This document shows, in pieces, positions 34,494-47,996 of a DNA stretch of 64,000 bases. The notes below the pieces were generated by a model that made no database searches, was not told the origin of the DNA, and was given only the letters and a program-made list of their open reading frames with translations. Source of the DNA: Escherichia phage Mimir124. Position numbers and translations under genes: made by a program. The first letter of the stretch is position 1. Each line of letters opens with the position of its first letter. The stretch lies in the sequence record PQ310662.1, one strand, 5' to 3'.

Positions 34494-34664
34494 ATGAACA
34501 AATTTACTATTCACTGGCTCAATGGAAAGGTTAGTTCTTTCATGGGTGAAGAACCTGCTGAAGGAAACAAAGCATTCCACATTGATTCAGAAGGCTGCAA
34601 AATCTTAATACCTTATGCTTGGTATAAAGATGGTGAAGTTGAAGCATTGAAAAAGAGTAGTTAA
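34494..34664 (+). CDS. hypothetical small protein (56 aa)
   Basis: ATG at 34494 within track ORF 34398..34664. Confidence 0.3.
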   Translation: MNKFTIHWLNGKVSSFMGEEPAEGNKAFHIDSEGCKILIPYAWYKDGEVEALKKSS

Positions 34665-35441
34665 TATCGTGAAGGGTTCTGTCAGAATCCTTTGAGATAG
34701 GAACTCCTATCATAACCTTTCTTAACTTAATCTTTGCCGTATGGCACTGACGCTAGGGGTGGCCCCCCATCCGTCAGACAGACTATTTTAAGAATGGGTT
34801 ATCTCAGAAAATGTAAAGCAACATTCGGGTTAATCAATGGCCTCTCCTATAGGGGCCATTTCTGAGTCTTAGGCTATATCCCAAAGGTTAGTATCTTTGG
34901 GATAAGGCTTCAGATCCCTTATCAAACTAGCTGCTCAATGTTGAGCATATTAATCAACCAAGCCCAATAAGGGGGCGGGAGTTTAATGCCGGTAAGCATA
35001 AGCCTATCCGTCTACAACATCGAACTGTTAGATCTTACATGCAATATAGGGTATAAAGGGAGGACTCGTCCCCTCCCTCCTATTATGAACTATCGGAGAG
35101 TGCATTAGTTGATTAGCTGTGGAAGGTAGGCCGATGTCCACGAGCATGGCCCAGAGCTAGTGTACTCCCCGATAGTTTTCGTAGCGATTATGCGGTTTTT
35201 TAGAAACGAACCAATAACATAAATGCAAACGAAGAAGCGTATCTGATGGTCGCCTAACAGCGTAACCTCAGTCAGGAGTGAGTCGTCCTGATTATCAAAC
35301 GACCGTGGAGTTCTCCCGTCCATGTATTAGAAACGGGGGACCAATTACCAGTTGCACGAGATGGCTTGACATGTTCAAGTTTGGACTAAGTGTGACACCG
35401 CTAGATTGGAGGGCTGCTGCGGTAAGCTATAGACTCCAACC

Positions 35442-35469
35442 GGAGGTTCGAATCCTTCACTGGTAACCA
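35442..35469 (+). ncRNA. tRNA 3' module (canonical T-arm GGAGG-TTCGAAT-CCTTC, acceptor 3' strand, discriminator A, encoded CCA); 5' half not resolved
   Basis: Exact GGTTCGAATCC T-loop motif; the only complementary 5' acceptor strand (taccagt) lies 121 nt upstream at 35346. Confidence 0.4.
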
Positions 35470-35545
35470 ATTCAAAGTAGCACTGTATCTTTAAATGTTT
35501 CCCGGCATTCAAAGAACCCACCGTGACAGTGCTACTCTGAATTGG
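35467..35545. repeat. 20-bp inverted repeat (19/20) flanking a 39-nt spacer
   Basis: ccaattcaaagtagcactgt (35467-35486) versus acagtgctactctgaattgg (35526-35545). Confidence 0.7.
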
Positions 35546-35642
35546 AAGAATTAAGACGGGTCTGGTTGAAGTAGATGGGGTTCGATTACCTCCGGTGGAG
35601 TAATCCACTAGCGTGCTTGGTGCACGAATAAGACTTAGTACT

Positions 35643-35667
35643 GGTGGTTCGATTCCATCCCCCGTTA
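35643..35667 (+). ncRNA. tRNA 3' module (T-arm GGTGG-TTCGATT-CCATC + acceptor 3' strand ccccgtt); candidate 5' strand gatgggg at 35574 (94-nt span)
   Basis: Canonical T-arm geometry; no standard D/anticodon arms found by hand in the intervening sequence. Confidence 0.35.
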
Positions 35668-35861
35668 CCTGAAGTCGCCAGGTACTTATGGCAAACGGGT
35701 AGTAACGAACTAGTCATTCGTCAAACGCCCACCCAATTATGAGTCAGCAAGAACGCCTTCACTTAAACTTAAACAAAAAAGCTTAACGCAATAATTATGT
35801 AGGGGTATGTAAGGATTGCGAAGAAGGAGCCAGTTAGAGCCTGGCATGACTCACCTATTAT

Positions 35862-35935
35862 GTCCACTTAGCTTAGACTGGGAAAGCAACCGACTAATAA
35901 TCGGAAGGTCACTGGTTCAAATCCAGTAGTGGATA
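35862..35935 (+). tRNA. tRNA (74 nt, canonical cloverleaf; anticodon loop CTAATAA, anticodon reads AAT in standard register)
   Basis: Acceptor gtccact/agtggat (7 bp), U8, D-stem gctt/aagc with GG in D-loop, anticodon stem ccga/tcgg, 5-nt variable loop, T-arm actgg-ttcaaat-ccagt, discriminator A. Confidence 0.6.
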
Positions 35936-36166
35936 CTTATTCAGCAGTAACATAGTCCTGATTGCATAGCACTCTAAAGACAACACTGGTAAGACAGTCC
36001 AGTGGCTGCTAATGTATTGTTATTCCCCTCGACGGGAATTTCGCTAGTGAAGGTAACACTTAAAAATCCAAACCTACGTCTTACTACTATCGGGCTATCA
36101 ACCCACGGTCGCTTAACCCTGTAGTGATAGTAGTTTGACGGCCTGCCTCGTTGACTGCGTTAAAGT

Positions 36167-36207
36167 CACTAAGTCCCTCGGAGCCGTCACTCTGGGGGAC
36201 TTTTTTA
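36167..36207 (+). terminator. rho-independent terminator closing the non-coding island
   Basis: aagtccc...gggggactt hairpin followed by tttttattt. Confidence 0.5.
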
Positions 36208-36208
36208 T

Positions 36209-36394
36209 TTGAGAACTGTTTATTGGACGATTCATATGATTGACCTAATCTTAACCCCGTATGCCTATGAGGTAACGGATAACCGAGGACGTAAGTCTTT
36301 GGTGTTTGCAGGTAGCGTAGCCTATAACAACGCAGTCATGTTTAAATACAAACTTAAACCACTTTATGAGGCTAATAATGGCAACAGTAAGTAA
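36209..36394 (+). CDS. hypothetical small protein (61 aa)
   Basis: ORF starting right after the terminator. Confidence 0.35.
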   Translation: MRTVYWTIHMIDLILTPYAYEVTDNRGRKSLVFAGSVAYNNAVMFKYKLKPLYEANNGNSK

Positions 36395-37646: not shown

Positions 37647-40600
37647 TTAATTTACCAGGTTCATCCAAGGGTTAAGGTTGTGAGCACGAAGCCCCTGACC
37701 AAAGCCCCATGAGTAATCCAGACTACCCTTAGCAGCAATGCTAAAGATGTTGTCCTGAATAGGTAAGCCAACGTTACCAAACATGGTAGGAGTTGGAGCC
37801 AACATAGCCATAGCAGCATGCACTGGGTTATTACGAATCATGGACACTGCAACTTTTGCAGAACGAATCTTAAAGTTGTAGAACCACATTAAACCAACAC
37901 TTTCCATATACCCACGGAAGCGACCAGGTAAACGATCATAGTTAATGAACTCTTCCGTTACACGTCCTAGTGCTTCTTCACGAGTCTTACCTTTACGCTG
38001 GGTCAATTCATCATAGATGATTGCTTTAGCGATAAAGTCAGAGTACTCAACGGTCTTCTGGATACCCTGGAATAAAGCAGTATCCTTAGTGATAAGTGCA
38101 TAACGTCCGGCAGTACGTACTGACTTAGGTAGCTTATCTGCCAATTTACTCATGTACTCTTGAAGTTTACCTTCGGTAATAAGGATGTCATCACGACCGA
38201 TACCAGCGTCTGCAATTGAAGAGAACTCACCAGCTTCTAACAGAGGCCAGATACTCATACGCTTATGGCTATCAGTAATGGACTGAATCTCAGCCTTAAG
38301 TTTACGAATCTGGTTCGGGTTAGTAGCTGCACGTAATTCTGCTTCTGCATCTACCTGACGCAGACGAGACTTCAGGTACTGGTTAATCTCAGCAGTTTTC
38401 TGTGGAATGCTCTTAGCAATGTTCTTAACCGGTACGCCACGGGCAACCATCTGGTAAAGGTTAGCCAAGAAGTTAACAGCAGGTACGACTACTGACTTAA
38501 CTACAATCAGAGTCTTGGCTTCTTTAACTAAGTTCTGAACCAGGTTCTCACCACCCATAGTGTACTTATAAGCACGGTTGCCAAATACACCCAGCATAGC
38601 TTTCTTGAAGGTATCCAGGGTTTCCGGGGACCAACGAGAATTACCAGACCAGGCATCACCAACAGAAGCTGCACGATAACCAAGTGCATCATTCAGCATG
38701 TCACGACGCACCCACAGTTCGCCATCACCAAACAGGCTTTCTGCTTTCCGTCGAGTTTCACTGTTCATCAGCTTAAGTGCATCAGCAGTTACTGGGTCCA
38801 GTTTAGAACCAAGAAGGTTCACATACTGGGACTTGTTAGAGGCAGACATCTTTATGTCGTTCTCATACATACTATGCAGGTTCTCAATCAGCATATCGTT
38901 GAAACGCTGTGCCTTAGCCTCTTCCACCTGACGCCCACGCCATACACCAATTGCACGTGCAAGATGGTTCTCACCTTCAATATGCTTCAGCATGTTAGGG
39001 TCAATGGATTGCTCATAAGCAACTACATTACCTTTATCATCATATACAGGCAGGAGTGGTTCATTACCACGTTCACCACGAGCCAGTGCTTTAGTGATAC
39101 GGTCTACGGAAGGCTTGTCAGTGATACGACCTGCTACCATGGAACCCATCGTAAAGCCTGTACCCAGGTCTACACCACCAGCAGTATTACGAACGTTCTG
39201 TAGGATACCCTGTGAGAATGGAGCCTGTGCCTGTACTGGTGCAAAGTAATAACTACGTGCCGGACCACGGTTAGCAGAACTACCTTGATAAGTACCCAGA
39301 CGTACATAGGACTTCTCAATCAAATCAGCAAACTGACTATCTTCAGCAACAATCAGATTAACGCCCTGTTTAGTCTCACTAGGGATATGCCCTTTGTACT
39401 GGTTCAGGGTTGCACGCATATCAGATTTGGCTTTAGCCATTTCATCTTTACGCTGACCAACCAGATAAGAAGTAGCAAAGTCCATTCCCTCAACTTCTGA
39501 TTGAGCCAGTGAAGATAACATCTCACGGTCGGACTTATTCATTGCTTCCAGTGCATACAGGGTAATCAGTTTATCCAGTTGAGCTACATCTACAGTAGAA
39601 CGAGCAGCCTGACGTTCACCCAGCATACGAGAGATTGCAGTAGCATTACGCAGCAGGTTATTACCGACTGTACCATTAATCATGTACTGAGCCAGTTGCT
39701 TAGATTTACGACTAATAAGAGGCCAGTTACGACCAGCTTGTTTTTGCAAATCTGCTTCCAGCTTATTCACTTCACGGTCAACAATCTTCTGGTCAGTCAG
39801 CAGGTCACGGATTTCAGCCAGAGACATAGTGTCACGCAGAACAGCTAAGTCAGTTTTACCCATACCAGTGTGCATTGCTTTCCACTCATCTTTAGTCAGC
39901 TTACGGCTGAACTTAGATGCGATAGTGGTGGGCAGGTGTTCACGAAATTGTTGACGGTCTGCTTGTACCTGTGCACGAACTGCTTTAATTAAATCATATA
40001 CAGAAGCATTACTCTTAGTACGACCAGTTAGGTCATTAACTAAGTCATGGAAAGGTTGCCATACCTTGCCTTGGTTCATTGCAGCCATAACACCTTCAGC
40101 TACGATTACACCATTCTTCTCTGTAGCAATGGCAGCTACCAGTTGTGCAGCATGAGCAGCACCTTTAACCAACGGGTTCTTGGTATTAGCTGCAACTTCA
40201 CGAGCACTTTCTAAAGCACGGGTGGACAGTGCATCAATAGAATCCACCAGATACTGGTTAGCACGGTCGATAGCATTACCACTAGGTATAGCAACGGAAT
40301 CATAAAATGACTGTGCATTGAGGCTGGTCTGCATGATTGTCTGAGCCAGTGCATCCGTCCCTTCCTGCACATTGGTGGCTTTGGTATCACCTGTTACACG
40401 AGCATTCAGGCTAGACATTGCAGCAGTACCGATGTTAGTCAGCATTGCATCAATGGTATTACCAGATTTCTTATCTGCTTTCATAACAGGAATGTTAGCC
40501 AGTACATTACGTACTTCTTCACTAACCATTGCCAGACCAACAAAGGTAGGCAATAAGGAAGAACGACCCTGTGCATCAAACTCAATGTTGTTAGCACCCA

Positions 40601-43600
40601 TGATGGTATCAAACTTCTGTTGAGCATAGTAACGGTCAGCAGGGTTAGTGCTATCAGGGTCAGCCATGAATGCTTCAACGGTCAGGTTCTTAGTGACGTG
40701 TGCGTAGTATTCCTGTGCACGAGAAAGAGCAGCCGGACTAATAGCAGCTTCAGTAGCCAAAGCAGCAACAATGTTAGTGAACAGTCGCTGTTCCTGCATA
40801 TTCATAGTGAAGCCATGAGCCTGAACATCACGAGTTACTTTAGTTGCATTCACTACTGCATCAGAGAACTTACCCTTACGAATTACTTGCTGTACCGGTT
40901 CTGAACCAATGTAGTTAGTAATCAGCTTATCAAAGGTCTGCCCCAACTCTTCCAGACGGGTATTGTCACCGTATGCTTTGTTATGGAACAGAGTAGTGTC
41001 TTTGGCTACAGCAGCAGTAGGAGCCTGCCCACGCATAACTACAGAAGAGTTAAACAGTAAGCCAGAGAACATATCATCTGCGTTAGCAGGGGCTTTCTTA
41101 CGACCAAATACCAGACGTTTGATTGCTTCATATACAGCCTGAACCATGGCCTTAAGTGCAGTGGTTTTCTTCTGCTTACCAATCAATTCACGGTTGGTTA
41201 AACCCCATGCCATGTACTCATTCAGTGCAGCAGCTTTAGCCATTGCTGGTTCAATAAAGCCATTAGACAAGTGACCATTAATGGTATTGAGTGCATCAGC
41301 ATATGCTTCACGTACTGCCGGGGATTCATCCTTAACATCCAGAGTACGGAACTGGTTCATCAGGTCTTCAATATTCTGGACTGCTTCATTAGAAGTACCT
41401 TCATAGTGAGCCAGTACAGATTCAAAAGTAGAAGCATGTACCAATTCATGAACCAGAGTCTCTAAGGAAGGAGTAACTAAGTAGATGGTCTTATCTTCAA
41501 AGTTAGTCCAGCCATATGCATTACCAGCTTCAGCAGCTTCAATATCTTCCGGTGCTGGGCGAGTAATGTTCTTCTCAATAGCATAAGCATCCAGTTGAGC
41601 AGGAGTACCATAAACAACCTTGTAGTCTTTAGCAGCAAGGGATTTCTGTACTTCTTTCAATACTGCTTGCTGTTCTGGGGACATCTCTTTAGCCAGCTTA
41701 GTGATAGCAGTATTGGACAGCAGACGTACACCGGACTTCAGTACACGACCTACCTTCTCCATTGCTGGTACTTCTTTCACTGGTTCTGCTTTAGCAGCAC
41801 GTACTGCATCACGACGCTTATTTAATTCAGCATCAAACAGCTCGTTCAGCTTAGCTACTTGTTGGTCTACAGTCAGACCTTCCAGAGAAATTTTACCGTT
41901 GTTCACATAAGGAGCACCTACAGCAGCCATCTGGTCAACAGTAGTCTGTACCTGGTTCATTACTTTGTGGCGAATATCTACACCCAGAGCAATGTTACGC
42001 AGATTACGTTCAATCTGTTCAGCACCAATACGTAACAGGTCATCAGTAGCACCTTCACGTTGGTCATATTCCAGAGCAGATTTAGCGATAGCCTGTTTGG
42101 TTTCATCAGACAGTTTGCTGAAGTCTACGTTCTTCATGAACTTAGCGAAGGAGTCATAAACATTCTTGATAGGGTTTCCTTGCCAAGAAGTATATACAGC
42201 CTCGTTAGCTTTACGACTTGCATCAGTAATGTCATTAATACCAATGTTCATACCATCAAAGATTTTCAGGGTATTCTTCGGAGCACCCTTCATAGTAGAA
42301 AGAGTCTGCATCATCATGCCATCACCAGTACCGATGGTCATAAATGGAATACCTGCAACACCTGCCTGTGAAGGAGCATAGATGCTCATTGGCACACGCA
42401 TACGGTCATCTAAGTTGGTAGCCAGTACTTGGTTAGCAACATCAGTGTTCTCACTACCAGCAATGTAGAAAGTCTGTGAGCCAGTCTCAATCATTGGAGC
42501 CAGCGGAGATAAGCTATTCTGAATTTCATTCAGTTCTTTCTGCGTTAAGAAATCACCTTTCTTCCATGTTGAGTCTTTTTCTTTTTCTGCAAGTTTAGCC
42601 TGTACTGCCTGTTGGAACATATCCTGCAATACCAGAGACTGAATCTGGGTAGCCTTCTGTAAGTTCTCAGTAGAATGCATCAGACCTTCACCAACAGTAT
42701 TTCGAATACCAGTACGCATTGGTTCAACGAACAGGTGAAGCATGTTCTCTTGTAAGTTCTTCAGGGCATTACCAGATACAGTAAACTTCTGTGGGTCTAA
42801 CTTACCAGTCAGAGCACCTTCTACCTGCTGAATAGATAACTCACCCTTACGCATAACTGGAACATTGCCAGTCAGTGCTTCCATAGAAGTAAGGAAAGTA
42901 TCCAGCATAGCCTGAGCATCAGCCTCAGATGCAGCCTCCTTACCAAACATTGCCATAGCCGGGGAAATACTAGGGTCAGCAGCACGAGCTTGCAGAACGT
43001 CGCTGAAGCGTTCGTAGATGGTATCAGTAATTGCACTAACCATCTTGCCAGCAATACCACGAGCACCAGAACCATAGATGGTAATGGTTAGTGGGTTTTT
43101 AGCGATACCACGTTTCAGGTCCAGTGTACCGTCTTCATTCAGGTTAAAGTCTTTGATGAACAGGTCCATTAACTTCTGGAGATGATTCATCTGGCTCATA
43201 ACAGGAACGTTGTTACGGTAAGTACTACGTAATTCACCAAGTGCTTGTTGCAGACCATTAGTAGATGCTTCATACAGGTCAACACTGTCATCCTGTGAGC
43301 GATGCTCGTTCATAGTCTTACCAGCTTTACCGAAGAACAAACCACCCTTAGCAGTATTCTTAATCCAGTCTGGAGTGAACTTACCACCGGTCATTAATAC
43401 CATTGCGTTGATTGGGCCATTGGTTACACCATCAGCTTCAACGTACAGTGGGGTATTAAAATTGGCACGGTCATCGCTATTCAGGTAACGGGCATATTCC
43501 ATCAGAGCCATGAGAGCTACGAATGATTTATCACCACCCAAAGAGGTCTTAAGAATATCCACTGCATCAACTGGTAAGTAACCAGACTTATCAAACTCAA

Positions 43601-46600
43601 CCATCATATCAACAGCAGGTTTCAGGTTACCTTCCAGAGCTTTGGTCAGCTTTTCAGACATAGCTTCACGGGACATGTTATGTACCTTGATGCCTAATGC
43701 CTGAGCCAGACCTAACTGAAAGTCAGAGAACGCTTGGCTGTTTTCATTACTCAAGTCAATAGTAGAGAAGGTTGGCAGAATTGCTTCACGAACCAGCTTA
43801 CTGGATTGTGGGTTATTCTTACCAAGCATCTGCATACGACCTACACGGGTCATGTTGTAACCATAGTGAATAGGAGTATCCAGTCCATTCTCCTGTTCCT
43901 GAACCTGATTGATTACCCCAAACAAGGAATCGTATGCCATAGACACGGACAGGTTCTTACATTCCAATGATTTAGCAGTGTTTACGTTCAGTAGTTCAGG
44001 ATTAATCGTACCAGCACCCATCAGTTCCAGAATGTTGTCACGACCCAATGCTTCATAGAAATTAACCATCGGCATGTGTACACGGAACTCAGTAGCCTGT
44101 TCTGCTTTAAGAGCAGCTTTCTGTTCTGGAGTATTCTTGACAGCCGGGTTACGTAACTGAGTTTGAGCCACGGAAGGAATATCATCCCCGAAGTACATTT
44201 TCTCTTCCGGTTCTACGAGGACAGCTTCCTCAATAGCAGTAGGGAAATTGTTAATGGCATCGTTATCATCCAGCTTCTCAATGGTGTACAGACCTACAGT
44301 CTTATTGGAGGCTGGGTCAATTTCAGACACATCCAGCATAGACTCTTTAACTTCACCCATCTCAATAAAGGAAGACAGAATCTCTGTAGCCATTGCCATT
44401 GGGATACCCTTGGTATAACCCAGTGGTGCATTAGGATTACGATTCAAACCCCAATAGGATTCAATCTTTTGAGCCAGTGAGTTAGTAGCTTCAACCAGGG
44501 TCTGAGCATTCTCGAAGTCAGCCAGAATACCTTCAGGTAACAGGGATGCTTCTACACCAGTAATAGCAGCTACATCTTTCATGTCTTTAATGGCAGCATT
44601 CTGTGTAGCAGTCAGTCGCCATTGCAAACCAGCAAGTACAGCAGTCTCTAGCAACTGGTCATTGAACTTAAAGGTGTCACCATCCTTCTCAACGATATTC
44701 AGCAGTTTACCACCCACCCAACGGTTAGCTTCAGTACCTTCTGCAAAACGTTTACCAACATTCTTGTTAGCAAGGAACTTAGCTAGACGGTCAGAAAGAG
44801 TAGTCTTCAGGGTTTCACCAAAATCAAACAAGTCCTGATAACGCTTAATCACATCACTTGTGAGAGCGTTATTTTCTTTTTGAGTAAATGCTTCAAAACG
44901 AGCAACAGAAGACAGTGCTTTCTTAACATCAGTCAAAGGAGACTCAGAACCAATGGTACGAGACTTAGGTTCTTCCGGTAGGGTAAATGCTTTCAGGAAC
45001 TGGTTCGGTGTCTTTTCATTGTTATAGACAGGGAACACTGTTTCCATTTCTGTTTTGGTTTCGACTACTTCCTGGGTAGTATCTACTGTTTCAGACTTAG
45101 TAGTAGAGACTTCTTCTGTTTTTGGGCTAGTCTCCATAGTAGGAGCAGTCTTATTTTCTACCACTGGTTTAGCTTTAGGCTGTACAGTAGTAGTGTCCTC
45201 TTGCACTGGTGCAGGAGTTTCATCAACCTGATTCACTGGTTCATTGGTCTGTTGGGATTGAGCAGCGTCAAGATTGCCCTGACGGAACTCTTTAACTACC
45301 TGGGCAGCAGGCTTGTCCAGACGTGAATCCAATGGGGTAACTTTCACATGAGAAACATTAAGCTCCGGGTAAGCCGTAGCAAGTGCGTTAGCAATATCAG
45401 CTACGGTTTTGGCCTCCAGTCCTACTTGCTGGGCAAACTTAACAGACTTGGTATCGTAAGGATTGACACCGAGTCCAGTACGACTACGTACCCATTCACG
45501 GGAAGGCGAGAGAGCCTGATAATGAACAGACTTATTCTTATCCGCATTCCCAGAAATCAGATGCTCATTCAACGCTCCGACCTTATTCTGCATGTGCTGG
45601 GCGAACTTCATAAAGTCGCTCAGATAAGCGGAGGCCAAATCGAAGTTACCAGAGTTATACGCAGAACGAATGCGTTTCGCATGTTGCAACGCAGAGTACT
45701 GTCCTTCGTTAGAACGAGACTCATCGGTTTTAATTTGTTTACTAACAATGTCTTGAGGACGTAAGCCCAGTTCTTCTGCTTTAGCGTCGAACTCACGTGC
45801 ACCCTGTAACAAGGCAGCAGCAGATTGCAGGGCAGCACGTTGATGATTCCCCAGTGTAATCTTACCTTCACTTGCATGTTTCAGAACCATGTTCACTGAA
45901 TCTGCATCCAGTACTTCTGGGGATACATCAGCAGCCATAGCAATGTTGTTTGCTTGGGCTTGATTAGCTTCTTCAGTAGCTTTCAGCTTACCTGCTTCAG
46001 CCTGTTCCTGAATCATGGAATGGATAGCACGGTATGCACGGAGTACTTTAGGTGTATTCTGTACGTTAGCCATCAGGCCAGAGAACTGGTCTACGATAGT
46101 AGCAGCAGGGGAACCTTGTTCCAGATTAGCCAGAGCACCTGGGTCACGGTTAATGAAGCTATCCATAGACATAATGTTGTCATACATCTGGATTGCAGCT
46201 TCCATTTGAACGTTAGGATCTTCAGCAGTATTAACCAGGTCAGCCATCTTCTGAATAGCTTCTACACGGTTAGTGGAACCAGAAACAGCTTCACGGATTA
46301 CCAGGTTAGCTTGTTCCAACTCTACTGGGTCGAACTTCATTGCCTGAGTTAAGTCAGCAGCATACTGAGTAGCAGCAGCTTTCTCTTCTGGAGTGATATC
46401 CATTGCATCTACTGCTTCCTGTACAGTTGCTTGTGCCTGCTCTGCCTGAGCAGCAGCTTCCTGTGCAGCAGCGTTAACCGTAGCATCAGCTACAGGGGAT
46501 GCTTGTTCATTACGCTTAGCAACTTCTTCCCCACGTTGAACCAGGATGTTAGTAAGAGGAGATGCAGCTTTTGCTAATGTTTTACCAACCAGAGAAGCAC

Positions 46601-47996
46601 CAGCCAGAGTAGTACGTAGAGCAGGACCAGCAGAAGCACCAACTGCTTTAACAGTTGCACCTGGAGCTTGAGCAACCCCAGCACTACCGAAGCCATAAAG
46701 TGCACCAAGACCTGCTTGCTCACCAACCCCTTTGAGAGTGTCACGGGATGCATCAACATTTTCCTTGATTGCACGGTTCTGGGCATACTGACCGAAGCCG
46801 GATTGAATACCCTCTTCTACAGTTTCACGGAGCATGTTAGAACCAGCACCAGCCAGTGAACCTACCTTAAGTGGGTTAAGTTCAAAACGAGATACCAGTG
46901 GGCCGGTAGCAGCAGCAACTGGAGCAGTTAAGCCAGCAGCAATAATACCTGTTTCAGATGCAGTCTGACGACGTGCTTCATCAGGGGATAATCCATCAGC
47001 AATATGTTGTTGGTAAACAGGAGACTTACTTGCCAAATCTTGATGGGACATCTTCATGATTTCAGAAGCAGTCTGTTGGTATGCACCACCAGCTTCCATA
47101 CCACCAATTGCAATAGCAGGTGCAGCAACACGACCAGCAGACAATGCAACCTGTGCAGGGCGTGAACCTAACTCAGCAGCTAAGGTAATACCCTTAACAG
47201 CTTTATCACCACCTACCATTACTTTACCAAGTGCAGATACACCACGGATAAGTGGACCACCAGTAAAGAGGGAACCAACACCTTCACTCAGTCCGTCGGA
47301 AGCAGCCATACCATTATCAAGTGTATTAGCAACAGAATCGAAAGCATCACGACCAATGCGAGACAAGGAGGCAACCAAATCGCTCTCCCCATTTTTGACG
47401 TCTTGTTCATAGAGTTTCTGGTTCTTTTGAGCAGAAATCTGGTTCTGATTCTGAACAACTTTACGGGTAGCATTCAGTGCATCAGATTGTAAATTGTGTA
47501 CACCTTCATTCAACCAATCCATCCCGGAAGCAATGGATGCCCCGGCATTATCATTGACCAGACCTGTGCCAAGAGCAGCAATGCCCCCAAGGGTATTAGC
47601 AACACCAAGACCAACACCAGAAAGAGTATCGCCAAATGCTTCTGCGTTAGTACGTTGTTTAGATAAGTCCTGACGTACAACATCAGCAGCATTAGCTCGG
47701 CTATTAAGAATTTGTAGACCTTGCTCATTACCGTACTTATTAATGATTTCTAATGGAGAGGCTTGAGTGAAATCTGCCTGAAGTGAACCCGGTTCGAATG
47801 CACCGATTCCAAGATTACCTACTCGTCCAGTCTGGAGATTGTAAGCGTTCTCTGGGGTTAATTGGAAAGGGCTTTGCCCTTGTGCAGCTTGCTTCTGAGA
47901 GGTTGCAGTAGAGACATCGACTTGCTTAGCAGTAGTGATGCTGTCTGCGAAACCTGCCAGACGGTCAAATGTTGACATAGCATGTTTCCTGTTCAA
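37647..47996 (-). CDS. virion-encapsidated giant RNA polymerase (N4 vRNAP-like)
   Basis: Single 3449-aa ORF (N4 vRNAP is about 3500 aa); first gene of the leftward late module; co-occurs with a split RNAP II. Confidence 0.75.
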   Translation of the reverse strand: MNRKHAMSTFDRLAGFADSITTAKQVDVSTATSQKQAAQGQSPFQLTPENAYNLQTGRVGNLGIGAFEPGSLQADFTQASPLEIINKYGNEQGLQILNSRANAADVVRQDLSKQRTNAEAFGDTLSGVGLGVANTLGGIAALGTGLVNDNAGASIASGMDWLNEGVHNLQSDALNATRKVVQNQNQISAQKNQKLYEQDVKNGESDLVASLSRIGRDAFDSVANTLDNGMAASDGLSEGVGSLFTGGPLIRGVSALGKVMVGGDKAVKGITLAAELGSRPAQVALSAGRVAAPAIAIGGMEAGGAYQQTASEIMKMSHQDLASKSPVYQQHIADGLSPDEARRQTASETGIIAAGLTAPVAAATGPLVSRFELNPLKVGSLAGAGSNMLRETVEEGIQSGFGQYAQNRAIKENVDASRDTLKGVGEQAGLGALYGFGSAGVAQAPGATVKAVGASAGPALRTTLAGASLVGKTLAKAASPLTNILVQRGEEVAKRNEQASPVADATVNAAAQEAAAQAEQAQATVQEAVDAMDITPEEKAAATQYAADLTQAMKFDPVELEQANLVIREAVSGSTNRVEAIQKMADLVNTAEDPNVQMEAAIQMYDNIMSMDSFINRDPGALANLEQGSPAATIVDQFSGLMANVQNTPKVLRAYRAIHSMIQEQAEAGKLKATEEANQAQANNIAMAADVSPEVLDADSVNMVLKHASEGKITLGNHQRAALQSAAALLQGAREFDAKAEELGLRPQDIVSKQIKTDESRSNEGQYSALQHAKRIRSAYNSGNFDLASAYLSDFMKFAQHMQNKVGALNEHLISGNADKNKSVHYQALSPSREWVRSRTGLGVNPYDTKSVKFAQQVGLEAKTVADIANALATAYPELNVSHVKVTPLDSRLDKPAAQVVKEFRQGNLDAAQSQQTNEPVNQVDETPAPVQEDTTTVQPKAKPVVENKTAPTMETSPKTEEVSTTKSETVDTTQEVVETKTEMETVFPVYNNEKTPNQFLKAFTLPEEPKSRTIGSESPLTDVKKALSSVARFEAFTQKENNALTSDVIKRYQDLFDFGETLKTTLSDRLAKFLANKNVGKRFAEGTEANRWVGGKLLNIVEKDGDTFKFNDQLLETAVLAGLQWRLTATQNAAIKDMKDVAAITGVEASLLPEGILADFENAQTLVEATNSLAQKIESYWGLNRNPNAPLGYTKGIPMAMATEILSSFIEMGEVKESMLDVSEIDPASNKTVGLYTIEKLDDNDAINNFPTAIEEAVLVEPEEKMYFGDDIPSVAQTQLRNPAVKNTPEQKAALKAEQATEFRVHMPMVNFYEALGRDNILELMGAGTINPELLNVNTAKSLECKNLSVSMAYDSLFGVINQVQEQENGLDTPIHYGYNMTRVGRMQMLGKNNPQSSKLVREAILPTFSTIDLSNENSQAFSDFQLGLAQALGIKVHNMSREAMSEKLTKALEGNLKPAVDMMVEFDKSGYLPVDAVDILKTSLGGDKSFVALMALMEYARYLNSDDRANFNTPLYVEADGVTNGPINAMVLMTGGKFTPDWIKNTAKGGLFFGKAGKTMNEHRSQDDSVDLYEASTNGLQQALGELRSTYRNNVPVMSQMNHLQKLMDLFIKDFNLNEDGTLDLKRGIAKNPLTITIYGSGARGIAGKMVSAITDTIYERFSDVLQARAADPSISPAMAMFGKEAASEADAQAMLDTFLTSMEALTGNVPVMRKGELSIQQVEGALTGKLDPQKFTVSGNALKNLQENMLHLFVEPMRTGIRNTVGEGLMHSTENLQKATQIQSLVLQDMFQQAVQAKLAEKEKDSTWKKGDFLTQKELNEIQNSLSPLAPMIETGSQTFYIAGSENTDVANQVLATNLDDRMRVPMSIYAPSQAGVAGIPFMTIGTGDGMMMQTLSTMKGAPKNTLKIFDGMNIGINDITDASRKANEAVYTSWQGNPIKNVYDSFAKFMKNVDFSKLSDETKQAIAKSALEYDQREGATDDLLRIGAEQIERNLRNIALGVDIRHKVMNQVQTTVDQMAAVGAPYVNNGKISLEGLTVDQQVAKLNELFDAELNKRRDAVRAAKAEPVKEVPAMEKVGRVLKSGVRLLSNTAITKLAKEMSPEQQAVLKEVQKSLAAKDYKVVYGTPAQLDAYAIEKNITRPAPEDIEAAEAGNAYGWTNFEDKTIYLVTPSLETLVHELVHASTFESVLAHYEGTSNEAVQNIEDLMNQFRTLDVKDESPAVREAYADALNTINGHLSNGFIEPAMAKAAALNEYMAWGLTNRELIGKQKKTTALKAMVQAVYEAIKRLVFGRKKAPANADDMFSGLLFNSSVVMRGQAPTAAVAKDTTLFHNKAYGDNTRLEELGQTFDKLITNYIGSEPVQQVIRKGKFSDAVVNATKVTRDVQAHGFTMNMQEQRLFTNIVAALATEAAISPAALSRAQEYYAHVTKNLTVEAFMADPDSTNPADRYYAQQKFDTIMGANNIEFDAQGRSSLLPTFVGLAMVSEEVRNVLANIPVMKADKKSGNTIDAMLTNIGTAAMSSLNARVTGDTKATNVQEGTDALAQTIMQTSLNAQSFYDSVAIPSGNAIDRANQYLVDSIDALSTRALESAREVAANTKNPLVKGAAHAAQLVAAIATEKNGVIVAEGVMAAMNQGKVWQPFHDLVNDLTGRTKSNASVYDLIKAVRAQVQADRQQFREHLPTTIASKFSRKLTKDEWKAMHTGMGKTDLAVLRDTMSLAEIRDLLTDQKIVDREVNKLEADLQKQAGRNWPLISRKSKQLAQYMINGTVGNNLLRNATAISRMLGERQAARSTVDVAQLDKLITLYALEAMNKSDREMLSSLAQSEVEGMDFATSYLVGQRKDEMAKAKSDMRATLNQYKGHIPSETKQGVNLIVAEDSQFADLIEKSYVRLGTYQGSSANRGPARSYYFAPVQAQAPFSQGILQNVRNTAGGVDLGTGFTMGSMVAGRITDKPSVDRITKALARGERGNEPLLPVYDDKGNVVAYEQSIDPNMLKHIEGENHLARAIGVWRGRQVEEAKAQRFNDMLIENLHSMYENDIKMSASNKSQYVNLLGSKLDPVTADALKLMNSETRRKAESLFGDGELWVRRDMLNDALGYRAASVGDAWSGNSRWSPETLDTFKKAMLGVFGNRAYKYTMGGENLVQNLVKEAKTLIVVKSVVVPAVNFLANLYQMVARGVPVKNIAKSIPQKTAEINQYLKSRLRQVDAEAELRAATNPNQIRKLKAEIQSITDSHKRMSIWPLLEAGEFSSIADAGIGRDDILITEGKLQEYMSKLADKLPKSVRTAGRYALITKDTALFQGIQKTVEYSDFIAKAIIYDELTQRKGKTREEALGRVTEEFINYDRLPGRFRGYMESVGLMWFYNFKIRSAKVAVSMIRNNPVHAAMAMLAPTPTMFGNVGLPIQDNIFSIAAKGSLDYSWGFGQGLRAHNLNPWMNLVN

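Follow-up and report, generated by a model that had tools for sequence, protein, structure and literature searches.

Escherichia phage Mimir124 contains, within the 64,000-nucleotide (nt) stretch of sequence record PQ310662.1 analysed here (in the following, the window), a non-coding island at positions 34,665 to 36,207 that we read as a small-RNA locus of an N4-like coliphage of the G7C/PhAPEC5 type. It includes an element of approximately 170 nt (35171-35340), referred to as the tag element, which resembles bacterial transfer-messenger RNA (tmRNA) in several respects and carries a 5' arm complementary to the tmRNA of the host. We hold this reading of the island as a whole with a probability of roughly 60%; within it, the element most likely pairs with the tmRNA of the host and would thereby block the host tag or substitute its own. 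Ribosome rescue by tmRNA is nearly universal in bacteria, and we found no report of a virus rewriting it. A tag template that lacks a tRNA domain and bears an anti-tmRNA arm is conserved in N4-, T1/Akira-, T5-, ViI- and P1-like phages as well as in lambdoid prophages, and this spread over lytic and temperate phages points to a widespread, overlooked phage interference with protein quality control. If docking and tag swap were true, they would be categorically new.

A tmRNA-like tag element

A permissive Rfam scan returned weak matches to two tmRNA families at 35156-35304 (23.1 and 16.7 bits), and no Rfam families other than those of tmRNA approach the tag element in score. The element, which like all features of the island described here lies on the plus strand, consists of a leader, the resume codon GCA, a tag of ten codons, a hairpin with the stop codon in its loop and, after it, two pseudoknots. 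The tag frame (35225-35257) reads GCA AAC GAA GAA GCG TAT CTG ATG GTC GCC TAA and encodes ANEEAYLMVA. As in tmRNA (SsrA), the GCA follows a U at position -5 and an A at position -4; throughout the family, position -4 is always A and position -5 is U or C. These nucleotides match U85 and A86, which help to set the resume frame of E. coli tmRNA. Further likenesses to tmRNA are the start of the tag with AND or ANE, its length of ten codons and its end in hydrophobic residues and a terminal alanine (the E. coli tag is ANDENYALAA), the stop codon in a helix-5-like loop, a leader that can form a pseudoknot and the pseudoknots downstream.

The coding character of the frame was assessed by searching IMG/VR with a pattern that covered the leader only and ignored the tag sequence. 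A frame of ten codons starting with Ala-Asn followed in 152 of the 154 loci found in this way, with tags such as ANDDVVLMAA, ANDDLMMVAA, ANEEMYLAVA and ANDEQFLAVA. The relatives KP8 and UE-S5a both have the tag ANDDVVLMAA, in which the last two alanines are encoded by GCT GCT versus GCA GCC. Other synonymous variants include one GCT AAT start, all four third positions in the last alanine codon and GCG, GCT or GCA in the penultimate one, while the stop codon is TAA or TGA. Judged by these substitutions, the pattern is the signature of a translated frame, though one without a start codon.

The predicted fold is likewise conserved. The stop codon is located in the loop of a helix-5-like hairpin (35243-35271) with the outer stem CTGA…TCAG and the pairings GGT/ACC and CGC/GCG inside; over 29 family members the outer stem is 98% paired and shows AU-to-GC swaps. 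Pseudoknot a (35272-35303) follows directly. Its stem 1 (TCAGGA/TCCTGA, 35272-77/35286-91) is 98% paired with three pairs changed on both sides, and its loop pairing of GTCG (35282-85) with CGAC (35300-03) covaries in the other subtype of the family (CCGA/TCGG, CCAG/CTGG, CCAA/TTGG). For the helix-5-like stem and pseudoknot a together, 94% of the cells in alignment A4 are paired, and in 53 cells both sides have changed, a result that 0 of 500 shuffles reached. Pseudoknot b (35304-35340) is formed by CGTGGA/TCCATG (35304-09/35319-24) and (T)CTCCCG/CGGGGG(A) (35312-18/35334-40). As the two subtypes differ in register and have indels, visual inspection was used for pseudoknot b and for the pseudoknot of the leader, and compensatory changes in pseudoknot b were seen in this way in KP8, phiMAM1, P7 and locus L020. 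The sequence …CGGGGGACCA (35334-35343), which was considered as a further CCA-ending acceptor strand, is in fact the 3' strand of this pseudoknot.

A blastn search with 35085-35345 detected the tag element in 504 phage records that span N4-like, ViI-like (phiMAM1), Akira/T1-like, 7-11-like and P1/P7 phages. It is also present in 656 of 5426 complete E. coli genomes (12%), at 554 places on P1-size plasmids and at 150 on chromosomes. The element is new in that it is absent from Rfam 15 and has no RNA gene annotation in the listed records that we inspected; moreover, we found nothing relevant on the tag peptide, on tmRNA-like phage RNAs or on anti-tmRNA small RNAs (sRNAs) in the searchable literature, a body of text that does not include most subscription journals. 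In phage Akira, a TTGACA-17-TAGATT promoter would start an RNA approximately 55 nt upstream, which places the arm at its extreme 5' end. The tag of phage P7 is ANDDLMMAAA, and the element (L087, 1490-1665) follows the C1-controlled ban operator there and precedes tRNA-Asn and tRNA-Thr. In a lambdoid prophage of E. coli E2865 (L179, 2501-2692) it lies between the Q antiterminator and holin genes, the interval that forms the leader of the late transcript and in which Shiga toxin (Stx) phages carry tRNAs.

In contrast to tmRNA, the tag message is not surrounded by a tRNA-like domain. ARAGORN called no tmRNA at the tag element in 87 loci, and in 164 loci no acceptor pairing spanning the element was detected apart from CACAAC box repeats. 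A one-piece or permuted tmRNA was rejected on these grounds. Rfam scores of the tag element amount to 14-33 bits (maximum 33.2 in relatives), whereas the gathering scores of the tmRNA families RF00023, RF01849-51 and RF04321 are 47-84. The G3·U70 pair of tmRNA is also lacking in module 1, the neighbouring tRNA-like RNA described below, and in the mini, T5-like and T1-like tRNA-shaped units near the element.

The 5' arm is complementary to host tmRNA

The 5' arm of the tag element (35173-35212) is complementary to nt 57-106 of E. coli tmRNA, for which the ssrA gene of E. coli K-12 (NC_000913) served as reference. TAGTTTTCGT (35173-35182) is a perfect 10-nt complement of tmRNA nt 97-106, which comprise tag codons 3-6. 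GCGAC pairs with nt 87-91, among them U88, C89 and two resume-codon bases, G90 and C91, and nt 75-81 are the partner of TTTGCGG; a weaker similarity extends to nt 57, and all blocks are collinear. Local alignments of the arm to the reverse complement of tmRNA scored 35, 34, 33, 31, 27 and 26 in six family members, compared to null means of 15.0-15.8 (standard deviation 2.3-2.6), and these scores were reached in 0 of 500 shuffles. The arm of the window (35165-35215) scored 31 with a null of 16.2±2.5 and 0 of 200 shuffles. When the 5' arm was aligned instead to the downstream half of its own element, likewise as reverse complement, it scored only 12-18, equal to the null, so what the arm fits is the RNA of the host, not the message encoded by the phage. 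Relative to host tmRNA, the leader of the tag element is complementary and not homologous.

Among 22 tests of island segments in both orientations, the arm was the only conserved match to tmRNA. Nucleotides 72-109 of tmRNA are targeted by 45 of 46 arm variants, and the tmRNA-pairing blocks fall on invariant columns when the family is aligned. A further perfect complement, GGCGGGAGTT (34974-34983) against nt 344-353 in the T arm of tmRNA (score 29, 1 of 200 shuffles), was attributed to chance because it is not conserved in phage IME267 or UE-S5a.

RNAs that base-pair with a regulatory RNA of the host are known from prophages, namely the anti-sRNAs AgvB and AsxR. The proposed target of the tag element is tmRNA, not an Hfq-dependent sRNA, and the element differs from these RNAs by its reading frame and its pseudoknots. 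The sRNAs STnc100 and Esr41 and the Pas sRNAs are encoded in the lambdoid Q-holin region, the same interval in which the tag element occurs in lambdoid prophages. The Rfam models of STnc100, AgvB, AsxR and Esr41 gave no match to the tag element.

Two tRNA-shaped modules without an anticodon arm

Two further RNAs of the island, module 1 (35346-35469, 124 nt) and module 2 (35555-35669, 113 nt plus CC), are, judged by sequence, complete RNAs: the tRNA half made up of acceptor and T arm, which is recognised by the enzymes that process tRNAs, is retained, and the remainder is replaced. Both have an acceptor stem (7 bp in module 1) and a 5-bp T stem with a T-Psi-C-type loop, both of these stems covary, and an anticodon arm with a 7-nt loop is absent from either of them. 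The initial annotation had drawn attention to the region by three T-loops, GGTTCGAATCC at 35445, GGTTCGATTCC at 35646 and GGTTCAAATCC at 35914, the positions of which were right. The motif GGTTCRANTCC has exactly these three matches in the 64 kb window, compared to a mean of 0.20 after shuffling, and three matches were reached in 0 of 100 shuffles.

In module 1, the acceptor strand TACCAGT (35346-35352) had been placed correctly 121 nt upstream of the discriminator and pairs with ACTGGTA (35459-35465) to give seven base pairs with U1-A72. The T arm is GGAGG-TTCGAAT-CCTTC, position 73 is an A, and the module's own CCA, which had also been recognised, is encoded thereafter at 35467-35469. The D region is expanded and contains a hairpin, while a predicted pseudoknot takes the place of the anticodon arm. 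Seven sequence variants from Gamaleyavirus, the genus of the window, and from the Klebsiella phage genus Kaypoctavirus, the only two genera in which module 1 was found, were aligned (alignment A5). The 32 pairs of the model are paired in 99.6% of cells, whereas controls in which the strands were slid reach 30-40%, and five pairs are changed on both sides (three in the acceptor, one in the hairpin and one in the T stem). Substitutions are nearly confined to helices and are compensatory, as illustrated by the acceptor variants TACCAGT/ACTGGTA, TATCAGT/ACTGATA and TACTGGT/ACCAGTA, by the D-region hairpin variants CTTGA/TCAAG and CCTGG/TCAGG and by an A-T to G-C change in the T stem. About 60 nt of the interior (35385-35443) are invariant. 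This part can form a 6-bp helix closing 22 nt and a pseudoknot (ACCGC/GCGGT), a fold that is only predicted because nothing varies there. Module 1 was not called by ARAGORN, did not match RF00005 at E ≤ 10 and has no candidate anticodon loop.

For module 2, the initial annotation had proposed GATGGGG at 35574 as the acceptor strand. This assignment proved wrong, as GGGG (35577-35580) pairs locally with 35588-35591 in a T-arm-like extra hairpin (35577-35591, loop TTCGATT) with the variants AGGG/CCCT, GGGG/CCCC, GTGG/CCAC and GCGG/CCGT. A closure of 35574-35580 with 35660-35666 at first seemed to be backed by GGGG/CCCC versus GCGG/CCGC in phage VR5; in L064, PW7 and UE-S5a, however, these strands are no longer complementary, and it is the local hairpin and an acceptor starting at 35555 that covary. 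This covarying strand, GACGGG(T) at 35555-35561, is located 19 nt upstream of the one suggested before and forms six pairs and one mismatch with (C)CCCGTT (35660-35666). Among N4-like phages the acceptor is GACGGG/CCCGTT (window), GGTGGG/CCCACT (UE-S5a) or GGCAAG/CTTGCC (L064, PW7, VLCpiP4a), and among T4-like phages it is CATGGCG/CGCTATG (VR5), CACGGCG/CGCTGTG (PEi20) or TACAGCG/CGCTGTA (CkP1). It is thus fully compensated within each phage group; over the joint alignment A3 only 62% is paired, because the N4-like and T4-like registers differ by one column. The minimum free energy (MFE) fold of 35555-35669 recovers the same acceptor.

Between the acceptor strands follow, after the extra hairpin, hairpin A (35594-35609, loop GTAA in the window and variable in relatives), hairpin B (35612-35626, loop TTGGT) and the true T arm (35643-35659). 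These four internal helices, numbered 2-5 in alignment A3, have 97.7-100% of their cells paired, and both sides have changed in 11 of their pairs. Over the whole module, 15 of 27 pairs are changed on both sides, the observed score was reached in 0 of 500 shuffles, and slid controls fall to 41-54% paired. The loop-closing pair of hairpin B covaries (CG in eight sequences, AU in three), which fixes the TTGGT loop at 5 nt. With loops of 4 nt in hairpin A and 5 nt in hairpin B, module 2 has no 7-nt anticodon loop. It was neither called by ARAGORN nor matched by RF00005 at E ≤ 10, and the tRNA-Sec model gave 19 bits with the wrong acceptor. Homologues with 74-78% identity are present, unannotated, in the tRNA clusters of the T4-like phages VR5, PEi20, CkP1 and TH40; the VR5 copy lies between tRNA-Met and tRNA-Arg, and the PEi20 copy adjoins tRNA genes.

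Since a covarying acceptor closes both modules, the earlier description of 3' modules lacking recognisable 5' halves does not hold for either of them, and they are not tRNA-derived 3' fragments. Long-variable-arm tRNAs, another option raised at that time, were not called by the Rfam tRNA and tRNA-Sec models, and no helix with a 7-nt anticodon loop is available. The suggestion of intron- or insertion-containing tRNAs survives in part: a tRNA-like RNA with an insertion is the closest fit, but the modules are not decoding tRNAs bearing an intron, as neither ARAGORN, which allows for introns, nor Rfam calls them. Nor did these two programs add any ordinary tRNA whose boundaries had been missed. 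The tag element itself and the spacer hairpins at 35090-35175 and 35470-35542 had been overlooked in that reading.

Similar tRNA-shaped units occur near the tag element in other phages. They measure 127 nt in T1/Akira-like phages (L035, L038, L027), 145 nt in ViI-like phages (L061 and L028, at -326 from the tag) and 150 nt in contigs of 108-112 kb (L014, L011, L039 and others), where the unit lies at +201 from the tag and which are probably T5-like. Many N4-like relatives also possess a mini tRNA-like RNA of 63-64 nt (TCCGGTG…T arm…CGCCGGA-ACCA) without D or anticodon arm (L001, 2391-2456; L006, ~2285-2351), which may precede or follow module 1 and is missing in the window. U1-A72 and A73 are shared by module 1 and the mini, 127-nt and 145-nt units, while the 150-nt unit has G1-C72 and T73; the acceptor of the ViI-like unit (TGCGGTG/CACCGCA) resembles that of the initiator tRNA. 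Relatives vary in the order in which the tag element, module 1 and the mini tRNA-like RNA are arranged, and UE-S5a has a 215-bp insertion exactly at an ACCAATT junction. The cassettes are mobile, with the same modules occurring in different orders and in unrelated phage families.

Proposed mechanism and alternative explanations

The island is probably one transcript that is cut into independent structured RNAs. Transcription would end at the terminator at 36171-36207, RNase III would cut the spacer hairpins, and RNase P together with 3' trimming would release the tRNA-shaped RNAs as stable molecules, as for the species-1 RNA of phage T4. That RNase P matures these RNAs and that their tRNA body stabilises them, we infer from the known enzymes and from engineered tRNA scaffolds. 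The arm of the tag element would then pair with host tmRNA nt 75-106, that is with the end of pseudoknot 1 (PK1), the resume codon and tag codons 1-6, and the template of the host tag would be silenced by this pairing. A further possibility is that ribosomes entered by host tmRNA-SmpB are offered the tag template of the phage; rescued proteins would then receive a phage-specified tag ending in …LMVA or …LMAA instead of …ALAA. Within the ssrA tag, SspB binds the N-terminal part and ClpX reads the C-terminal residues. The phage tags keep the AAND or AANE of the N-terminal part, the tag of the window keeps the Tyr at position 7, and the terminal LAA is replaced by MVA, MAA or AVA. With the SspB part kept and the end read by ClpX altered, a changed fate of the phage-tagged proteins would be plausible. 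More tentatively, and with considerable doubt, the element may represent a new class, a tag-swap RNA that docks on tmRNA and has its own message decoded, giving the tags (A)ANEEAYLMVA or (A)ANDDVVLMAA, and the neighbouring tRNA-shaped RNAs may be natural tRNA-scaffolded effectors of the same counter-host programme.

Several points weigh against this explanation as a whole. No mechanism is known by which a second RNA molecule would be brought into the ribosome once tmRNA has entered. The arm of the window is among the weaker ones, as a slightly different segment scored only 23 (6 of 500 shuffles), and RNAduplex energies exceed those of shuffles only modestly (-28.2 versus -26.1±2.8 for the window). 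The arm variants are related, so that the 45 cases of a shared target are not independent, and the known hosts presumably share this stretch of tmRNA, which leaves no host variation for covariation. A pseudoknot within the element is also predicted to involve the arm, and part of the arm's conservation could have this origin. The Pas sRNAs share the prophage region, and the tag element is set beside them by location only. What modules 1 and 2 do is a guess, their payload being invariant (module 1) or having no assigned target. Finally, all evidence on the island RNAs is computational.

Three other accounts of these RNAs were weighed. The tag element might be a decoy or sponge only, acting as antisense on tmRNA or titrating a host factor by mimicry of the tmRNA message region, with a frame that is never translated. 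The antisense arm fits this idea, a block of the resume codon through base-pairing does not call for a novel mechanism at the ribosome, and prophage-encoded anti-sRNAs such as AgvB and AsxR are an established concept; yet the frame with its synonymous changes, the Ala end, the A at -4, the stop in a loop and the two pseudoknots would be left unexplained, and we regard this account as rather unlikely. A split phage tmRNA, in which module 1 would be the aminoacylatable tRNA-like domain that is joined to the tag element or re-associates with it, received close attention, given that module 1 begins at a distance of 5 nt from pseudoknot b and has ACCA at its 3' end. The distance of 5 nt recurs in KP8, where both form one 400-bp block of 85% identity, and long tRNA-like RNAs are found near the tag in N4-, T5-, T1/Akira- and ViI-like loci. 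However, module 1 has C3-G70 or U3-A70 and not the G3·U70 needed by alanyl-tRNA synthetase (AlaRS), no complementarity of at least 7 nt was found between it and the tag element, and order and spacing vary, with 215 bp and two other tRNA-like units in between in UE-S5a. No tRNA or tRNA-like unit lies within ~1 kb in 50 of 164 tag loci, the P1/P7 and lambdoid copies lack an adjacent one, and a message 5' of a closed tRNA-like domain is a topology absent from one- and two-piece tmRNAs. This makes a split tmRNA improbable. We assign a similarly small chance to the tRNA-shaped modules being punctuation only, recruiting RNase P and 3' nucleases to set the ends of their neighbours. An RNase P cut at the start of module 1, 5 nt past 35340, would indeed generate the 3' end of the tag RNA, and units end in ACCA-ATT junctions, but an acceptor and T-arm minihelix would suffice for this purpose, whereas ~60 nt of the module 1 interior are invariant between genera with flanks differing by 15%, and the four internal hairpins of module 2 are kept by covariation across phage families.

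The two remaining alternatives fare worse. Modules and tag element could be non-functional tRNA and tmRNA pseudogene debris left by recombination in a tRNA cluster, and the mosaic region in relatives, with insertions, deletions and tandem tRNA duplicates, the G·A mismatch in the first T-arm-like hairpin of module 2 in the window, where relatives pair G-C, and the fuller tRNA set of KP8 at the same locus would agree with this. Debris is nevertheless very improbable, given that compensatory changes keep every testable helix, that module 2 is kept from N4-like to T4-like phages and the tag element over at least six phage groups with unrelated flanks, and that tag length, AN start, Ala end and stop are maintained in 152 of 154 loci despite substitutions. 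Decoding tRNAs with introns or insertions, or circularly permuted ones, that become ordinary after processing would account for the perfect T loops, the 7-bp acceptors, the A73 and the encoded CCA of module 1, and hairpin B (CUUGGUG/CUUGGAG) might, with its closing pair opened, pass for the anticodon loop of a Pro tRNA (UGG). That pair covaries, though, and module 1 offers no candidate anticodon loop; ARAGORN made no call, Rfam tRNA gave none at E ≤ 10, tRNA-Sec gave 19 bits with the wrong acceptor, and group I or group II introns were not matched. Of the explanations considered, we therefore hold this one to be extremely unlikely.

Relation to known phage RNAs

With their defined structures, the tRNA-shaped RNAs add new members to a kind of RNA that has long been known without explanation. 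Species 1 and 2 of T4 (rnaC and rnaD) are small stable RNAs encoded inside the phage tRNA cluster, and RNAC is, with 139 nt, longer than a tRNA and has a canonical T arm near its 3' end. The function of RNAC and RNAD is still unknown (PMC3014915, PMC9697503). Similar to these, homologues of module 2 are located within equivalent T4-like clusters and are not annotated as tRNA. By contrast, the VR5 homologue does not occupy the rnaC/rnaD position, and only the generic T arm aligns with rnaC (27 for module 1 with a null of 16.3; 21 for module 2). Homology of modules 1 and 2 to rnaC or rnaD was rejected on this basis, and the likeness is one of kind, not of family membership. The island provides a handle on a puzzle that is 50 years old, the role of non-tRNA stable RNAs in phage tRNA clusters such as species 1 and 2 of T4.

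In engineered scaffolds for the production of recombinant RNA in E. coli, a foreign structured RNA is inserted instead of the anticodon arm of a tRNA, and the acceptor/T-arm body confers processing and stability. A comparable architecture is seen in modules 1 and 2 and in the 127-150-nt units of T1-, T5- and ViI-like phages, which unlike the scaffolds are natural; in the modules the D region is remodelled, too. The scaffold method is mentioned in PMC3753655. PMC10264068 describes phage tRNAs with anticodon-loop variants that evade host anticodon nucleases. The island is the same type of locus as these tRNA clusters, and its tRNA-Ile has an unusual A34. Modules 1 and 2, however, have no anticodon loop and hence cannot replace a cleaved tRNA in decoding.

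Canonical tRNA, spacer hairpins and genomic setting

The island tRNA itself is ordinary. As proposed in the initial annotation, a single canonical tRNA with the anticodon AAT is present at 35862-35935; it is the sole tRNA called by ARAGORN and by Rfam (62.6 bits, threshold 29; still the only one at E ≤ 10) and corresponds to a tRNA-Ile with A34, which is rare in bacteria and phages. It has a G1·U72 wobble in the window compared to G1-C72 in relatives and no encoded CCA. The AAT anticodon is kept in the tRNA-Ile of UE-S5a and ST4, and the tRNA body shares ~82% identity with genes that are annotated as tRNA-Ile (ileZ) and tRNA-Met in Stx and lambdoid phages. This tRNA-Ile may have been derived from a CAU-anticodon tRNA by a change of C34 to A. 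Relatives have a second, odd tRNA just upstream (L001, 3081-3153; L002, 2866-2938), which is annotated as tRNA-OTHER or tRNA-Thr and for which ARAGORN gives an anticodon of two bases. It is absent from the window and was probably lost there by a deletion between tandem paralogues.

Two spacer hairpins surround the tag element and module 1. The first (35090-35175, MFE -40.4 kcal/mol) has a 12-bp closing helix CTATCGGAGAGT/ACTCCCCGATAG round an apical domain of 62 nt. The helix is compensatory between the window (GG..CC) and KP8 (AA..TT), and phiMAM1 has a different 15-bp helix at the same place. Its apical 47 nt (35108-35154, TTAGTTGATTAGCTGTGGAAGGTAGGCCGATGTCC…) are 83-90% identical in ViI-like phages (Cba120 and others) and in coliphages of 75-78 kb, and a related motif is situated inside the 150-nt tRNA-like RNA. 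The second, long hairpin (35470-35542, MFE -25 kcal/mol) has a stem of ~17 bp with the core AGTAGCACTGT/ACAGTGCTACT. Related stems (AAGAGCAYT…AGTGCTCTT) flank cassettes in KP8 and in T1-like, P1 and lambdoid loci. The cassette-flanking stems of N4-like, T1/Akira-like, P1/P7 and lambdoid loci read (CACAAC)AGGTAAGRGCAYT…AGTGCTCTTWYCGTTGTGG, compared to GAGAGTGCA…TGTACTC in the window, and further spacer hairpins were noted at L086 (1650-1748) and in phage P7 (L087, 1670-1750). The spacer hairpins may be RNase III sites, recombination joints of cassette exchange, or both, and RNase III might cleave at 35470-35542.

The window belongs to Gamaleyavirus, an N4-like genus of the family Schitoviridae. 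In a blastn search of GenBank phages, 34600-36250 was 90-97% identical to the Escherichia phages PhAPEC5, PhAPEC7, F22, E20 and G7C. A block of replication genes precedes the island (a single-stranded DNA-binding protein, SSB, is annotated upstream in ST4), and an open reading frame (ORF) of 3449 amino acids (37647-47996, minus strand) adjoins it, the size of which is that of the virion RNA polymerase annotated in relatives. None of the five ORFs tested (40-77 amino acids, including the largest of the island with 77) had a PHROG match, and a protein-coding account was rejected accordingly. The number of sigma-70 promoters within the island is not above chance, nor is the region flanked by such promoters above chance; transcription would thus occur by read-through from upstream middle genes.

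The left non-coding part (34665-35089) is conserved in Gamaleyavirus and has no Rfam match. Its section ~34895-35089 is ~77% identical to coliphages of 76-78 kb (IME267 of the genus Suseptimavirus, ECBP2, NJ01), in which the hairpin domain follows the shared stretch and the tag element after it is absent. The right non-coding part (35936-36170) comprises further hairpins and the motif GGGCTATCAACCC at ~36093-36105. This motif is part of a 9-bp hairpin (ACTACTATC…GATAGTAGT), recurs in Serratia phage phiMAM1 (L007, 2483-2497) and may be a further shared cassette. The island is closed, as had been noted, by a terminator-like hairpin (36171-36202, 13-bp stem) followed by a T run, together forming a predicted intrinsic terminator at 36171-36207 that is also annotated in the records of PhAPEC5, PhAPEC7 and G7C. 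Conservation and structure support the earlier view that the island is a structured, co-transcribed unit closed by this terminator. In hundreds of GenBank phage records, these RNAs either lack annotation or lie under spurious "hypothetical protein" ORFs. Coding sequences of this name are drawn over RNA modules in several records (11 in Bas96), and the K57alpha1.2 record has a "tail spike protein" at such a place; all of these are probably annotation artefacts.

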